DNA of 64,000 bases, taken from IMG/VR virus record IMGVR_UViG_3300030107_004732, positions 1 through 64,000 of that record. One strand, given 5' to 3'. Positions 93-30,124 of this stretch are shown in pieces. The notes beneath the pieces were generated by a model that searched no databases, was not told the origin of the DNA, and was given only the letters and a program-made list of their open reading frames with translations. Each line of letters opens with the position of its first letter. Position 1 is the stretch's first letter. The DNA comes from a virus. The position numbers were made by a program, and so were the translations under genes.

Positions 93-3000
93 TCTATTAT
101 TATCGCCTTCTACTACTAAAGTATCAGTATCAACAATAAAATCATCTCCTGCATCTGTTCCAAGAGTCACATTAATACTTGTTCCTGCATCTGAACTAAT
201 ACTATCTAATGCTATATCACCTACATTAGTAATATCATTGTCTTCAAAAGAAGCAGTACCACTACTACTTATATTAAATCTTGATGTATCACTATCAGTT
301 AAATCTCTAATATTAAAACCATTACTTCTACTACTAACCTCAAATGCTCTTTGTGTAGTTTTTAATGTTAATACTGCACCACTTGTAGTTGAAGATTCTA
401 TACCAATACCTTGACCACCCCAACCTGTTCCTTTTGCGTGAACTTTATAGTTAGGTGTAGGGTCTGTACCTATTCCTAATCTTGAATTGGAAGCATCAAA
501 CGTAAACTCAGCATTAGTATGAGGTGCTAAAGTACCTGTTGCTGTATCAACAAATAAAGGGAAACAAGTTGAATCACTATCTTCATCTGTTACTGCTAAA
601 TTGCTTGTAACAGGAAAATTATCAGTATGTGTTTGGTGTACAGTAGTACCAAAATCTGTAACAAAAGTTATATCCCAATCATCTGTATAATCATCTATAT
701 CTGAACCACCACCAATTTGCACATCTCTAACTGTTATTTGTGGATAAGACCAAGTAGAATCTACTGCTCCAATAGCAACAAACCAATCCGTATCATCGTG
801 TCCATAACTTACTGTAAAATCTCTATCTTGTTTTTTAGCAAATATCATAGCTGTTTCTGATACCCATTCGTGATCTTCAGTAGCAGTTGATTCACTACCA
901 GGCTCATTCTTATACATATATCCTTGTATATAAGCACTAAATGATTCATCTGTTGCATAATCAGTTACATCTACCCACATACTAATCCAGTCAGTTGCAT
1001 CACCTGTACCGCGAGGTATATGGATTTTTATTGCTCCTGTTACAGCATTTGTAGATGTTCTATACATACCTTTAGGTGGGATTAGTATACTACCACCAAA
1101 TCCTGTTGATGTACCTGTAGGACTTCCAAGATTTTCTACAAATATTCCACCTTCTTTACGAAGCATTAAACTACCGTTAAATGTAGCAGTATCATCAGAC
1201 TGGGTGCCTATAACAAAATCTCCTCCTAAGTCTGTATTTAATGCAGTTGCTAAATCAGCTCCACCTGAAGCCATTAAAACATTACTACCTTCTACTGAAA
1301 TTTTACCTGATGAAACTCTTGCTAATGTAGTATCAGAAGCGTGACCTAAATTTACAGCACCACTAACACCTAGATTACCTGAAGTGTCAAGTGTCATACT
1401 TTGACTACCTGCAATCTTCCATTCATAACCAAGCCAACCTGTGCTATGGGTAGAATCCCAACCTACATACTTAGTATCATCATCTACATAGTATTTACTT
1501 CTAATGTTATTAGTACCCTCACCTGCATACAATATGTAGGCAATTTCGTGGTCATTTGTAGAACTTGATAATTGTATTGCTTTGTCAGGAGTTGTTCCAA
1601 AAGATGCAGTAACATCATCTCCAACGTGTAATAAATGGTTAGGTCCTGTGTTTCCTATACCTACAAATCCATTTGTATCTAAAGTAACTAAACTATCGGT
1701 TCCACCAGCGCCAAAGTACAATTTTTTTGTTGAAGCTGCCTTGATATACATATTTCCAGCACTTGTAATGTTTGTATTATTTGTCCCATTGAAATTAAGT
1801 TCTGTAGCAGAATCATTTGTAATGTTTATACCACTACCTGATAAGTTTAATTTACCTGCATTTATAGTTGCATCTGAAGGGTTATAAGTAAAGTTACCAT
1901 CTGATTCTAAACCTAAATTACCACCATCTGTATCTGCACCTGCTGCAAATATAATAGCATTGTCTTCATCTGTGCTTTCATTATCTGTAATAGTTACTGT
2001 TGTAGCTATTGCTGCTGTACCTGTAGTGTCTTGGTTAAGAGTAGCTATATTGCCAGCAGGTATAGTATCTAATGCTGTAAATATTTGTTTAAAGTCTCCC
2101 CAATCACTTGTAGCTGAATCTCCTGGGTCTCCTGTTCTCCAAAATATACCACCATTTGTTGTTGAAGAAGCATCTGCGTGAAAAAATAATTGATGAGTAG
2201 CATCTCCTGAAGAATCTCCCCAAGGAGCAATAGTCATTAAACCACCATAAGTAGCATTTGAAACACTAGGACCACCAATAGAACTTGATTGTTTAAATTC
2301 AAATCTAACTTCTTTATTAAATATATCAGGAGCATCATACGTGCTTCTTGTGTCTTTCATTGTAATTCTTGCATCAGCAATAGTAGTAGTTCCTGTAAAT
2401 GTCTTATTTCCACTAAATGTCTGTGTGCCTGATAAATGTGCTGTATCTGAATCAAGGTAAGCACTTGCTATTGCAGTTCCTTGCCAAGTACCTGATGATA
2501 TTGTCCCTACACTTGTAAGTGATGAATTAACTACGCCACTACCTAATGTAGTAGCACTTAATACTGAAGTATTATCTATTCTATATTCGTGTCCACTTGT
2601 TAAATTAAGGATTCCATACCCTGTCATATTTCTATTAAAGTCTTGAACAAGTGCATTTCTGTTTGAGTTTGCACTTGAATAAGAAGATATGATACCTATG
2701 TTTTTAAGTCCAATAGTTTTACTTGTATCTGCATATTCAGGAAAAGTTACTGTAACTCTTATATGTTTTTCTGCATTGTGCATACCTGTTGAGTAATACA
2801 TAGCCAATCCAAAACCATTCCATATTCCTGTTGTATGCCAATTAGTAGTTATTCCACTATTAGTAGTCCAATCATTATTGGTATCATCACTTGCATCAAA
2901 ACTACCATCTAATCTTTCTACTACCATTGTAGGTGTTAAACTTCCACCTCCTGAAGCACTTGTTGTCCAAGTTCCAATAGAACTCCAAGTATTTTCTATA

Positions 3001-25578: not shown

Positions 25579-25791
25579 ACCTATTTTATTACTAAAATAA
25601 CTTAATATTTATACAAATACAGGCAAATATAGTGATATATGGTATGATATAGACATACAGCAATATAGCCTGCTACAATGTATGCGTGTGTGTATGATAT
25701 ATATATAAACTTATACCACACATATAACAAGTATTTTGTTTTCTCCTAACCTATTAACGCCTAGTGTAAAAGCTAGGCAGAAAGGCATATC

Positions 25792-26289
25792 GTGATAGAT
25801 ATTAGCAATAAAGTCATTGGTACTTCATTAGGCCAATGCATTAGGGATATATTAGTTGGACATGTCAAGTTCACTGATGTAATAATGATATATTGTGGTA
25901 CAAACATACAATCTCAAAGAGACCTTAATAAAGTAATTGATAGGTATTCTAGAGATGTATGGGCTTTTCACAATGAAGAAGTAATTAGACAAGTGATAGA
26001 TTATTTTCTATTTAGAGGTTTAATACAACAGGAAAGAGTTGGTAATAACATTTATTATGGTTCTTATCCTAATCATACTAAACTTTGGTATAAACTATCA
26101 GACTTTGATGTTAAAATTCAAAAAGCGTTTACTGTAGTATTTAGCGCTAATTTGGATAATTCTGATAAAGGTGATATACCTGACGCTGATAAAAGACGCA
26201 ATTCTTCAGTTAAAGAAGAGTTGGATGATTTAATATTAGCTAACGCAAAAATTTATGATGCTAAAAGAAGGAGGTGTTTAAATGATTAA
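25792..26289 (+). CDS. Hypothetical phage early protein
   Basis: 165-aa ORF, IGTSLGQCIRDI motif. Confidence 0.75.
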   Translation: MIDISNKVIGTSLGQCIRDILVGHVKFTDVIMIYCGTNIQSQRDLNKVIDRYSRDVWAFHNEEVIRQVIDYFLFRGLIQQERVGNNIYYGSYPNHTKLWYKLSDFDVKIQKAFTVVFSANLDNSDKGDIPDADKRRNSSVKEELDDLILANAKIYDAKRRRCLND

Positions 26290-26656
26290 TATGATACCTA
26301 TAAGAGATGATCATAAGAAAGTATTAGTGAGTGCTAAAGATATAAAAACTATCTTCACTTTTGAAAGAGAGCCACGTTCAGAGACATTAGAGCAAAGACT
26401 TGCTGCTAAAAGAAATAATGAACAAGTATATTGTATTAATATAAAATATGATAGTTATTTTGAAGAAAATGGGATTGTTCTATCATATAGAAATGAATCA
26501 ATACGAGATACGGTATTTGAGAGTATTTATAAAACATTAGACTCCCGATCTAATATAGTTGATAATAGTTCAACAAAGGCAATTGAGCCTGTGATGCGTA
26601 AAGATCCTAAGTTTACATTTTATGATGTATGTGTAGGAGGTGCTTTATATGAATGA
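26282..26656 (+). CDS. Hypothetical protein
   Basis: AGGAGGT RBS; overlaps neighbours. Confidence 0.75.
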   Translation: MINMIPIRDDHKKVLVSAKDIKTIFTFEREPRSETLEQRLAAKRNNEQVYCINIKYDSYFEENGIVLSYRNESIRDTVFESIYKTLDSRSNIVDNSSTKAIEPVMRKDPKFTFYDVCVGGALYE

Positions 26657-26864
26657 TATTTATACAGCAACATTATTGTTCCCAGATGGTCATTTAGAGG
26701 TCTGGGAGCATATTGTTTATAATTATGCAGATGCTAGAACAGTGCATCTTTATTTAGAACTGTTTCGTCTTAATGGTGTGAAAATAGTAGATCAAACAAA
26801 TGATAAACTACTATATATACCTAAAATAGTATCATCATATCAATTAAGGGGGATGTTACAATGA
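26649..26864 (+). CDS. Hypothetical protein
   Basis: AGGAGGT RBS before the ATG at 26649; ATGA-coupled to the next gene. Confidence 0.65.
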   Translation: MNDIYTATLLFPDGHLEVWEHIVYNYADARTVHLYLELFRLNGVKIVDQTNDKLLYIPKIVSSYQLRGMLQ

Positions 26865-27424
26865 TAAGACTATTATTATTATTAAGTGTGTGTTATGGAT
26901 ATGTTAATCTTGACCTATTTGTAACACATGCTGCTAAACAGACTCATAGTTTTGTACAATATGATGGGTCTTATTATGATATTGATTACCCAATGGGTGA
27001 CATATCAAGAGATAAAGGTGTGTGTACTGATGTAATAATCAGAGCATATCGTGATTGTTGTGGAGTAGATCTACAAGAGTTAGTGTACGTAGATATGATA
27101 AATAATAATCATTTATATGATACACCTTATGAGGTTGATAATAATATTGACCACAGAAGAGTAAAGAACTTAAGAGTATTCTTTGAGCATAACGGATATG
27201 TTAAGCCAAATGATGATGAGTTCTATCCAGGTGATATAATTACTTGGAACCTACGCAAAAGAGGTAGTTTACCTCATATAGGAATATTATCTCATTTATA
27301 TAGTATAGATGGACATCCACTGGTTATCCACAATTCTGGTGGTGGTGTAGTTATTCAAGACATATTGTTTAAATATGATATAACTGGCCATTATGTATAT
27401 CGTGGAGAAGGGAGAATAAGATAA
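26861..27424 (+). CDS. DUF1287 (YijF-like) NlpC/P60-superfamily protein with short signal-like N-terminus
   Basis: YPMGD..GVCTDVIIRAYR, DLQ, NIDHRRVKNL, PGDIITW, LPHIGI motifs. Confidence 0.85.
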   Translation: MIRLLLLLSVCYGYVNLDLFVTHAAKQTHSFVQYDGSYYDIDYPMGDISRDKGVCTDVIIRAYRDCCGVDLQELVYVDMINNNHLYDTPYEVDNNIDHRRVKNLRVFFEHNGYVKPNDDEFYPGDIITWNLRKRGSLPHIGILSHLYSIDGHPLVIHNSGGGVVIQDILFKYDITGHYVYRGEGRIR

Positions 27425-27425
27425 T

Positions 27426-27677
27426 ATGTTTAATCCTAACCAATTAAAGCTAGATACTACCATATTACAGTCTAGAACTGTTGGTAATCTAGTAGAAATA
27501 TTAAGAGAAGGCTTAAAGTCTAATGATCCATTGATATTAAAAAAAATGGTAAAGTATATACTTAAAGAAAGAGATAAATCTTTACATATGTACAGCACTA
27601 GATCAAAAGGTGGCCATAGAAAAACTACTGTTAATAAAAAAATAGAAACAATACAAAGGAGTAAAGATGATAATTAA
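27426..27677 (+). CDS. Hypothetical basic protein
   Basis: 83-aa ORF in the early operon. Confidence 0.6.
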   Translation: MFNPNQLKLDTTILQSRTVGNLVEILREGLKSNDPLILKKMVKYILKERDKSLHMYSTRSKGGHRKTTVNKKIETIQRSKDDN

Positions 27678-28016
27678 TATGATAAAATTATGTGCTTATA
27701 CTTTAGCGATTGGCTTAACATTTGTTGGGGCATTTGCTATATTATTCAATGTATTTATTAACATATAGGAGAAACTATGGATGAGGAACATGAGGCTTTT
27801 GAAGCAGCATTAGAAGATATGGGCTTAAATGATGCAATAGTATTTATATTAGCCGATGAATATTATAATTTGTAACTAAAACAGGCTTTCTTTGTTGAGG
27901 ACAATAGTAATGATACTAAGCAAATAAACAAAGGAGGTGTTATGAATTATATTCGTGATAGTAGTAGTGTGGGATAACACTCATGCTACTGCTTGATCAA
28001 AAAATTATTAAACTTA

Positions 28017-28096
28017 TCCTATACCAATGTTAACTTGCCCTTGGCTCATACCCAAGAAGGCGAGAGTCCTGAGATAACAACAGGTAAGGTATAGGA
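28017..28096 (+). ncRNA. Candidate small structured RNA (possible pseudoknot)
   Basis: 9-bp closing stem TCCTATACC/GGTATAGGA with nested stems. Confidence 0.4.
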
Positions 28097-28141
28097 GCGC
28101 ATTGCACGCATTGCAATACAACAATGAATAATGAAATAAAA

Positions 28142-28549
28142 TTGAGAGTTATGAAACAGGCCTGATCACCTGTGGATTAACGATGTGAAACCTGTAGAGC
28201 ATTCTGGTGAGGAGTGTGCAGGTAGACTGTTAGGTGTGACCGCTATAATATCAAGTGATGTTGTAGAACTAGTAGAGGCTAGAACAGTCGTAGAGCCAAT
28301 ATAAATGATAAGGGAATCCTTATCCAGTGGGTGTATATGTCTAGAGATAGACACTGAATACGGTAAGCAGGTCTTACATGAAAACAGATACACTATTTAG
28401 TCTATGGATTAACTACCCATATGTGACGACCTATCGGGGTAACCAGCCCTCATGGAGATAGGAGTAGCATACTTGATCACTCTTGTAGACGAAACACTGC
28501 CAATTAAAAATGGTATCTTGCGGGTGTCCCAAATCCCGCCACAACTCAA
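28142..28549 (+). ncRNA. Candidate large structured ncRNA (~410 nt, GOLLD/ROOL-class in size and style)
   Basis: No plus-strand ORF, raised GC, paired 5'/3' ends, at least 8 hairpins and long-range complementary segments. Confidence 0.6.
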
Positions 28550-28579
28550 ATACTTTTAACCTACTAATCAAGGAGAATT

Positions 28580-29032
28580 ATGAATAAATTTACATGTGAT
28601 ATATGTGGAGACACATCTTATGGTCATTCACATAATACTCAACCATTATTAAATGGACAATGTTGTGCACTATGTAATATGATATTTGTTACAGCATCTA
28701 GAATTACTGGTGTTGATTCATTAGATGAACAAATAGAATATATGATGAAAATGAAAGATGAAGATGAACTACCTGATATGTTCTTAGAAGTTTTAGATAG
28801 AGTTCGTGACTATCAAGGTAAAATATTTCTAGAAGAAACAGCCAAAATATCTATAGAAGATCTAAACGCTAAATTAGATGAATTGGAAGAAGAGAAAGAA
28901 ATAGAAAAGTTAAATATGTCAAAAGAAGAGATAATATATAACTTAAAAAAAGCATTTGACAATGCAATTAAAATAGAAGCTTATGAAGCTGCTGCATTTA
29001 TTAAGAAAAGAATTGAGTCTCTAAAGAGTTGA
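28580..29032 (+). CDS. Zn-finger plus UVR (UvrB/UvrC) domain protein, McsA-like architecture
   Basis: CDIC...CCALC at the N-terminus; LKKAFDNAIKIEAYEAAAFIKKRIESL UVR-type motif at the C-terminus. Confidence 0.6.
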   Translation: MNKFTCDICGDTSYGHSHNTQPLLNGQCCALCNMIFVTASRITGVDSLDEQIEYMMKMKDEDELPDMFLEVLDRVRDYQGKIFLEETAKISIEDLNAKLDELEEEKEIEKLNMSKEEIIYNLKKAFDNAIKIEAYEAAAFIKKRIESLKS

Positions 29033-29232
29033 TTGGTAGGAGAACAACTGATCTGTAGTTGGCTTGACAAGTGCCCTATACTAAACTGCAGATATAGCAC
29101 CCATCATCGATAGGAATACCTAAGGCAAATTGCACTGCATGAGCTGTTGGTGGGTGCTGAGATTTGTATATCATTTACTATAAATATAATGAAAATAAGA
29201 AAAAACATAGAAAAAATATGGAGGATATTAAA

Positions 29233-29733
29233 ATGGGCTTTGATTTAAGTGGTGTTAATCCACAAATAAATAAACCTGAATCTGAATATAAATACTTTAA
29301 AGAAGATAGTGAATTATGGATGTCAGACGACAAAAAAGAACGTGAAAAATACTTTAAAGAAATGGATGATTACCATGAAAATAATCCAGGAGTATATTTT
29401 CGCAATAATGTTTGGTGGTGGAGACCATTATGGTCTTATGTTATCAATTTATGTGACGATATACTTACAGATGATGATATGGAACATGGATCATATAATA
29501 ATGGACATGAAATATCTCAAGAAAAAGCATATAAAATAGGTTTAAGACTATTAAAAGACATAGATTCAGGTAAAACTGCTGTTTATGAAGAATTACACAC
29601 AAAAAATAATGCAGAATTAAGTCAATCTAGCGATAAAGATGCGGCATTTATGTCTAATTATCCATTTGATGTAGATAATGTAAGAAATTTTGCTAATTTC
29701 TGCTTACAATCAGGAGGTTTTACAATATGTTAA
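29233..29733 (+). CDS. Hypothetical phage protein (MGFDL...YFRNNVWWWRPLW)
   Basis: GGAGG RBS supports a start at 29233 rather than 29164. Confidence 0.8.
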   Translation: MGFDLSGVNPQINKPESEYKYFKEDSELWMSDDKKEREKYFKEMDDYHENNPGVYFRNNVWWWRPLWSYVINLCDDILTDDDMEHGSYNNGHEISQEKAYKIGLRLLKDIDSGKTAVYEELHTKNNAELSQSSDKDAAFMSNYPFDVDNVRNFANFCLQSGGFTIC

Positions 29734-30124
29734 CATTTTACCCAGTAAAAACTGAAGAAGAACTAATAACTGAGCTTCATCATGTAAGAAATGATATTGC
29801 TTTATTAAAAATAAGGCAAAATAAGATAATTGATGAACTTGTAACATTAAAAGGAGATAAAGATGCCAAAAACTAAGAAAACTAGAGATCCAATAGATGA
29901 AATTGATAATATATTAAAAACTATAGATAAATTAGAAGGTAATATGGATATTTTAAACACAAATATGCAACATGCTATTGATTTACAGGAAGAAATAGGA
30001 AGAGATTTAGACAAGATTAAAAAAAGGATGGGATTATGATAAATTGGATGAATCTTTGTGTATATGGTGGAATATTTCTACTTGGAATGATAATGTGGTA
30101 TTATATAGTGAAATGGTGGTTCTA

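Follow-up and report, generated by a model that had tools for sequence, protein, structure and literature searches.

The window analysed here is the first 64 kb (64,000 nucleotides, nt) of IMG/VR virus record IMGVR_UViG_3300030107_004732, an 85,245-bp record rated complete. The phage belongs to a lineage of uncultured marine tailed phages, and no cultured phage has a large terminase more than 26% identical to its own. Between two plus-strand genes of the window lies a block of about 412 nt that is very probably a real, expressed and structured non-coding RNA of a new, uncatalogued family. Overall, it is likely to represent a new family of stable, trans-acting phage RNAs which takes the position, and probably the function, that the large phage RNA GOLLD has in a related phage; the mechanism offered for it below is conjectural.

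No credible gene is present in the 704 nt that separate two plus-strand open reading frames (ORFs), one of 32 codons with its end at 27875 and one of 150 codons with its start at 28580. The longest stop-to-stop frames over 27876-28580 (translation table 11) are 49 amino acids on the plus strand and 76 amino acids on the minus strand, and alternative codes (TAG read as glutamine, or table 4) opened no credible gene there. No conserved frame runs across the alignment of the core, in which indels are of 1-2 nt. The core has a G+C content of 42.2%, compared with 32.3% for the whole genome (85,245 bp), and is present once in the genome. An earlier note on this DNA, made from the sequence alone, had described a gene-free and GC-richer stretch at 28142-28549; these are also the limits of the block conserved in relatives, as blastn similarity starts at 28121-28139, stops at 28549-28577 (around 28550) and collapses beyond, where the flanks are unalignable.

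The core alignment contains 12 distinct sequences (this phage and 11 others) after three exact duplicates were dropped; eight are full-length and four partial. In the pattern scans, 4 of 9 matches in viral contigs and 10 of 14 in metagenomes were true and the remainder were chance; three additional scans of viral contigs recovered the same four loci only. Two pattern scans of 185,579 species genomes gave nothing real (a single chance match, L027, lies in coding DNA of an unrelated bacterium), and the GenBank phage collection gave no blastn match to 27900-28650. The 12 core sequences are 83-100% identical, while the syntenic protein genes are 50-90% identical at the amino acid level. All copies, from viral or marine metagenome contigs, are found at the same syntenic place on contigs collinear with this phage. 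In the closest relative, L024, the core is identical at 326 of 329 positions, and the neighbouring ORFs are 79-93% identical.

A consensus secondary structure of 125 pairs in 21 helices (H1 to H21) was derived with RNAalifold from five sequences and mapped onto the 12-sequence alignment. The core and its parts in the consensus model are:

28139-28550, plus strand: conserved core of about 412 nt, 21 helices, 5' and 3' ends paired, represented by 12 distinct sequences

28142-28187, plus strand: 5' strands of the closing helices H1 (28142-46) and H4 (28184-87), enclosing H2 and H3

28190-28289, plus strand: 5' domain, consisting of the H5/H6 hairpin and a three-way junction of H7 with H8, H9 and H10

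28292-28518, plus strand: central domain closed by the long-range helices H11 (28292-98/28511-18) and H13 (28325-29/28495-99), holding H12, H14-H16 and H17-H20

28520-28549, plus strand: 3' hairpin H21 (GCGGG/CCCGC) with a 10-nt loop; the 3' strands of H4 and H1 come immediately after it

Standard pairs make up 99.6% of the 1338 alignment cells. The homologue alignment, which the earlier note had proposed as a check, shows 14 pairs changed on both sides, compared with a mean of 4.9 in shuffles (none of 500 reached 14) and with 0-2 in six controls with slid partners. The both-sided changes fall in H14 (three), H11, H19 and H20 (two each) and H3, H7, H8, H18 and H21 (one each); transversions among them are U-A to A-U in H11, G-C to C-G in H19 and U-A to C-G in H14. 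H9 has four pairs with one-sided G-U/A-U/G-C changes. The loop of H15 reads GAGA, GAAA or GCAA, a GNRA series, and the copy in the window contains 12 G-U pairs. Unpaired columns are conserved as well, with 107 of 159 invariant.

All eight local pairings listed in the earlier note are part of this consensus: the pairing of the ends (TTGAG/CTCAA) is H1, ACAGG/CCTGT is H3, ACCTGT/GCAGGT is H5, GACTGTT/AACAGTC is H7, GATAAGG/CCTTATC is H12, GTCTA-GNRA-TAGAC is H15, CCTATC/GATAGG is H18 and GCGGG/CCCGC is H21. The long-range pairing ATCAAGT/ACTTGAT suggested there found no support. Its arms lie inside H9 and H20, and ACTTGAT is changed only in L005, at two bases that are compensated locally in H20 (two pairs). 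A search for pseudoknots by all-against-all covariation returned spurious pairs from shared descent that swamp any signal. The loop of H3 holds the palindrome TGATCA, which is present in 10 of the 12 sequences; its count in the window is not above chance. The word TGGATTAAC is present twice in the RNA and was considered as a linked twin box; this was ruled out, as both copies change independently in relatives.

The predicted fold of the core exceeds chance moderately, and on the plus strand only. Over 28142-28549 the plus strand gave z -2.32 (1 of 100 shuffles as good) and the minus strand z -0.54; over 27876-28579 the values were -3.70 and -0.35 (20 shuffles each). The comparison with shuffled controls thus came out in favour of a structured RNA, but thermodynamics alone is insufficient to carry the case.

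Metatranscriptome mapping was another check proposed earlier. Twenty runs from 13 studies were listed, all marine, seawater, estuary or aquatic, and eight of them are RNA libraries. Of the words of a 1051-nt query, a fraction of 0.40-0.44 is present in four small metatranscriptomes, which corresponds to about the size of the element. Contigs of four runs (three RNA runs from three studies, and one DNA run) were placed on 26800-29800. In all three RNA runs the contigs are confined to about 28024-28545: X3 has error-free contigs at 28024-28337 and 28308-28492, reaching 28545, X4 has one at 28034-28500, and X5 a single contig at 28029-28511, so that the starts are 28024, 28034 and 28029, respectively. 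Summed word depth on the RNA is 36-97 (X3), 3-9 (X4) and 8-11 (X5), compared with 0-6 on the flanks (3 kb) and 0 on 27406-28011; the depth on the RNA is 10-40 times that of neighbouring genes. The contig of the DNA run (X7) crosses the 5' edge. In X3, letters that we take to be Illumina adapter ends abut 28024 and 28545; their orientation fits a plus-strand RNA if the library is dUTP-stranded. Diverged variant RNA contigs, with 16 differences in 183 positions and 20 in 178, show that relatives are expressed too.

The molecule made in this phage would accordingly be about 520 nt long (from about 28024 to 28545-28550) and include a lineage-specific 5' leader; its exact ends are estimates. For the phage group the size is put at about 410-530 nt. 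Upstream of the core the following features are found:

28009-28025, plus strand: promoter-like motif (a TAAACTTATACC variant) where the RNA contigs have their 5' edge

28024-28106, plus strand: leader domain of nested hairpins, on the same RNA contigs as the core and common only to the closest relative

28107-28137, plus strand: A-rich variable linker from leader to core, with different cassettes in relatives

The leader is on the same 483-nt contig as the core in X5 (28029-28511). It is identical to L024 at 81 of 83 positions, compared with 134 of 148 for the bases just upstream, and 28013-28100 folds at z -3.28. The linker is swapped for 71 other letters in the X7 DNA contig and in L024. 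Further upstream, outside the cover of the RNA contigs, an 11-codon mini-ORF with a strong Shine-Dalgarno sequence (27943-27978, plus strand) ends inside a 14-bp hairpin (27959-27996); its peptide is conserved in L024.

Two alternatives are addressed by these data. The first is control in cis: the element would be a riboswitch- or attenuator-like leader of the downstream gene, which encodes a 150-amino-acid zinc-finger protein. The core ends 30 nt before the start of this gene, on the same strand and with no terminator called between the two, and L011 keeps a homologue of the gene. The cores of L005, L007, L012 and L023, however, are followed by other sequence or genes; as the downstream gene varies, the RNA is an independent unit and not the leader of one gene. 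At the 3' edge the RNA depth drops from 79 through 7 to 0, and on the downstream gene it is 0-3. To our knowledge, cis leaders are also far smaller and have far fewer helices than the 21 of this RNA. A cis-acting leader is therefore very improbable. The second alternative is an element acting at the DNA level (a replication origin or packaging site) or a decayed protein gene, with the RNA signal incidental. It would fit the lack of genes in the stretch, the unusual composition and the distance of about 3.3 kb to the small-terminase gene. Against it stand the strand-specific pairing with G-U pairs, the compensatory changes, an RNA-library peak confined to the element, and conservation above that of the flanking genes, in an alignment that has indels of 1-2 nt and lacks a shared frame. 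Of all the explanations weighed, this one receives the least credence.

Kretsch et al. (bioRxiv 10.1101/2024.12.08.627333) describe GOLLD as an RNA that phages encode close to tRNA islands and that is conserved in its 3' region but variable in its 5' region; many members exceed 800 nt, and one marine member is located downstream of tRNA-Met. According to the same source, GOLLD forms a 14-mer RNA-only nanocage of unknown function and its expression rises during lysis, and ROOL is a large, ornate, phage-associated RNA, often near tRNA islands, sometimes very abundant and likewise of unknown function. A more distant relative of this phage, G003 (= L029), whose homologue of the 189-amino-acid gene located downstream of the RNA is 49% identical, carries a GOLLD (RF02032, 163.5 bits, E 8e-46, match 975-1383). 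G003 is collinear with this phage, in the order structural genes, terminase, divergent region, GOLLD, 189-amino-acid gene and next gene. The slot of its GOLLD, from the terminase region to the homologue of the 189-amino-acid gene, is the slot of the new RNA. The comparison with GOLLD made in the earlier note was thus a good lead. Around the match, the plus strand of L029 from 640 to 1420 is ORF-free for about 780 nt (z -11.9) and has a variable 5' region of about 335 nt before the GOLLD match; the contig is without tRNA.

Sequence comparison places the new RNA outside every catalogued family that was searched. With cmscan and 4227 Rfam families, nothing at gathering level was found in the window, and slices of 801 and 436 nt gave only chance matches at E<=10, with no family reaching that level on the core itself. 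The GOLLD model (cut-off 150 bits) has no match at E<=10 in this genome, with 17 candidates scored, none at E<=10 in the records L007, L011, L012 and L002, and none at E<=1 in L003, L005, L030, L031 and L032; L030 and L031 have no RNA-like gap upstream and no GOLLD. The ROOL model (RF03087, cut-off 99.1 bits) gave 0 candidates in the genome, a weak negative for want of a positive control. A short member of the GOLLD or ROOL class, or else a new class, had been suggested earlier. The second part of this suggestion is supported by conservation, covariation, the strand-specific fold and the metatranscriptome contigs; the first part finds no support, the model matches being absent.

The relation to GOLLD could nevertheless be one of common descent, the new RNA being a genuine GOLLD that has diverged too far for the Rfam model to recognise it. 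In addition to the shared slot, the core (412 nt) is about as long as the GOLLD model (416 positions), and in both RNAs a variable 5' region precedes a conserved 3' block. The two also have similar 3' ends, in which a G+C-rich hairpin of 5 bp with a loop of 9-10 nt is followed within 4 nt by CACAAC and an A/U-rich tail. However, the model that gives 163.5 bits in G003 scores nothing at E<=10 here and nothing in the genomes of L007, L011, L012 and L005, cmscan at E<=10 on 436-801-nt slices lists no GOLLD match, a profile of the new family finds only chance-level matches in G003 (E 1.4 and 6.6), and the best local alignment between the new RNA and GOLLD is 28 nt. Common descent in a form that the model misses is judged improbable, and the comparison suggests that the two RNAs are either non-homologous or unrecognisably diverged.

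A catalytic or mobile RNA is another alternative, either as a ribozyme that processes neighbouring tRNA-type genes or as an ORF-less intron-like element. Its cassette-like presence and absence between relatives, the tRNA-type genes that it adjoins in 4 of 11 loci (see below) and the 107 invariant unpaired columns would agree with this. Against it, no self-splicing intron, RNase P or small-ribozyme family, all of which the Rfam library presumably holds, was reported at E<=10 on the core. The core also has no match to the transfer-messenger RNA (tmRNA) model (RF00023, standard or permuted), ARAGORN reports none, and there is no tag reading frame; the cmscan comparison proposed earlier with GOLLD, ROOL, introns, RNase P and tmRNA therefore gave no identity at E<=10. 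The element lies between ORFs and not within an exon, the flanking ORFs simply abut in relatives without it, and nothing points to transposition, all copies being confined to one phage lineage and to one syntenic position. We consider this alternative very unlikely.

In some relatives the RNA is part of an RNA island. The statement that no tRNA is found next to it holds for this genome, in which ARAGORN found 0 tRNA or tmRNA genes in the window and 0 in the whole record, but not for the relatives. Of the 11 distinct loci for which the upstream DNA is long enough, 4 have a tRNA-type element (tRNA-Met, a tRNA-like gene or a tmRNA-like domain) on the same strand, 76-950 nt before the core. L011 has a tRNA-Met and an 89-nt tRNA-like gene, the latter ending 76 nt upstream of the core; tRNA-Met is found 470 nt upstream in L005 and 950 nt upstream in L022; and L012 has an 82-nt tmRNA-like tRNA domain 83 nt upstream. 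Between the tRNA-type genes and the core there is a mosaic of recurring cassettes.

ARAGORN assigns the anticodon tta, which would read UAA, to the 89-nt gene (L011:8648-8736, plus strand, the same in L020), and Rfam matches its T arm only; this gene could encode a suppressor tRNA or a tRNA mimic of another kind. The domain in L012 (907-988, minus strand) lacks the tag-coding and pseudoknot body of a tmRNA and matches Rfam tmRNA with 56.4 bits (cut-off 47), model positions 1-374 being compressed into 82 nt. It has an acceptor stem with G3-U70, an AUUCGA loop, a P2 stem with a 16-nt loop and a T arm, and is not called by ARAGORN. Such a phage 'mini-tmRNA' could accept alanine and then fail to restart translation. 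A tmRNA_permuted match in L012 does not reach any threshold (20.3 bits, E 0.069), and a manA match at the cut end of L022 (16 bits, E 0.23) was attributed to chance and was not reproduced on the core of the window. The cassettes of 60-90 nt that recur upstream of the core in L005, L013 and L022 (about 70 nt; e.g. L005 at about 1400-1480, minus strand) look like exchangeable small RNA modules. One of them is closed by AACAGC.../...GCTGTT; another has a GTGGT/ACCAC hairpin and stands in L024 in place of 28107-28137.

The motif TATATATAAACTTATACC precedes the tRNA-Met in L011, the tmRNA-like domain in L012 and the leader of the core in L007. In the window, an exact 12-mer copy is located at 25706-25717, and the variant at 28009-28025 is where the RNA contigs begin. 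Only this placement is suggestive of a promoter, a function that is proposed here from sequence; the count of TAAACTTATACC in the window with <=2 mismatches (15, against 14.5 expected) is at chance level. The exact copy is part of a block at 25680-25720 (plus strand), in which GT-rich repeats are followed by TATATATAAACTTATACC; relatives have the block as well, directly 5' of the tmRNA-like domain or of tRNA-Met, whereas in this phage it is separated from the RNA by five small ORFs (25792-27875).

Several points weigh against the reading of the element as a stable trans-acting RNA, or limit it. The structure was derived from the same sequences that were used to test it. Eight of the 21 helices (H1, H2, H4, H5, H10, H13, H15 and H16) are invariant, including both end-closing helices, and the invariance of H1, H2 and H4 is evidence neither for nor against these helices; H6, H9, H12 and H17 have no both-sided change. 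In an all-against-all column screen many pairs 'covary' through shared descent alone, and cell counts thus overstate the number of independent events. The presumed transcript, 28024-28550, folds on the plus strand at z only -1.41, and 10 of 100 shuffles do as well. A start at 28024 would cut the outer stem of the leader, which requires bases 5' of that position. A sigma-70 scan found no promoter at the 5' edge of the RNA, and no plus-strand terminator was called. The contigs are weak evidence for starts, ends, strand and level, and the breaks near 28308-28337 and 28492-28511 may reflect co-occurring variants (bubbles). The argument from the GOLLD slot rests on 1 of 11 records searched, a 10-kb fragment. 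The family is narrow, with at least 83% identity and about five clades. Finally, two contigs (74% amino acid identity, DUF1287 gene) lack the whole stretch, a small ORF abutting the homologue of the 150-amino-acid gene; the RNA is dispensable for this clade of two related genomes.

At the locus, the RNA is the first element of a rightward operon beside the terminase genes. The 150-amino-acid protein encoded next to it found only one cluster (97% identical) in a search of 5.8 billion proteins, and no relatives among viral contigs. On the 3' side of its gene, an intergenic element at 29028-29160 (plus strand) is conserved in L003 (4398-4515) despite diverged neighbouring proteins; it has long-range complementary ends (CACCCATCA.../...TGGTGGGTG), contains the word AACAACTG and is probably another small structured RNA. 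Within the 189-amino-acid gene, the segment 29325-29441 (plus strand) has a summed depth of 170 in DNA run X7, compared with 3-9 around it; many contigs of that run diverge on both sides of the segment, which is common to many different phages of the sample.

The new RNA occupies the same slot as GOLLD and has a GOLLD-like layout without detectable homology, and it is therefore read as a stable trans-acting RNA particle that is the functional counterpart of GOLLD. This is the likeliest mode of action, held with a confidence somewhat short of even. The RNA would be abundant and fold into a compact, end-closed, multi-domain body; during infection the folded molecule would serve as a particle or scaffold, which may be a homo-oligomer and may have tRNAs or ribosomes as its targets. 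Self-assembly, taken by itself, is unlikely; its single hint, the conserved palindrome in the loop of H3, proves nothing. By analogy one may go further, and suppose that GOLLD and the new RNA are interchangeable cassettes that do the same job by the same physical principle, the new RNA either self-assembling or capturing tRNAs or ribosomes; this extension is doubtful. If it were true, the new RNA would be a second, smaller natural solution (about 410 nt), and the shared features would reveal a GOLLD-type function.

GOLLD and ROOL are among the best-known RNAs without a function. The swap in the GOLLD slot can be regarded as a natural experiment, in which features that both RNAs have in common (context, partners, assembly) point to the function and those that differ are dispensable. 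With a core of about 410 nt and a transcript of about 520 nt, the new RNA is tractable for cryo-electron microscopy and chemical probing, and in marine RNA data it could serve as a marker of active infections by phages of this group.

Among known systems, the tRNA cluster of phage T4 encodes small stable RNAs (species 1 and 2, rnaC/rnaD), which are non-coding, of unknown function and about 120-140 nt long. They are likened to the new RNA by description only, as stable phage non-coding RNAs in a tRNA cluster, and are much smaller. With tmRNA there are two points of contact, the 82-nt tmRNA-like domain 83 nt upstream of the core in L012, and the 3' end of the core, where the 3' strands of the closing helices come directly after a 5-bp G+C hairpin in an arrangement loosely reminiscent of a T-arm/acceptor stack; the 10-nt loop of H21 is not a T-loop, and the core does not match the tmRNA model. 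No description of this RNA was found in the papers searched. About 8,500 RNA candidates from IMG/VR are listed in the supplementary tables of Fremin et al. (PMC10690425), and the new RNA might be among them. ROOL is similar as a large, ornate, phage-associated RNA; it differs in that its model has no match here (without a positive control), in size (574 model positions compared with a 412-nt core) and in the marine habitat of the new RNA. From GOLLD the new RNA differs in having neither a model match nor sequence similarity, and in its transcript of about 520 nt, where many GOLLD members exceed 800 nt. It resembles GOLLD in being a large, multi-helix, phage-encoded and abundant RNA, in its layout, though not its sequence, of a conserved 3' block of about 410 nt with a cassette-like variable 5' region, in the tRNA-Met or tRNA-like genes upstream of some members, and in occupying the same slot in a collinear relative.

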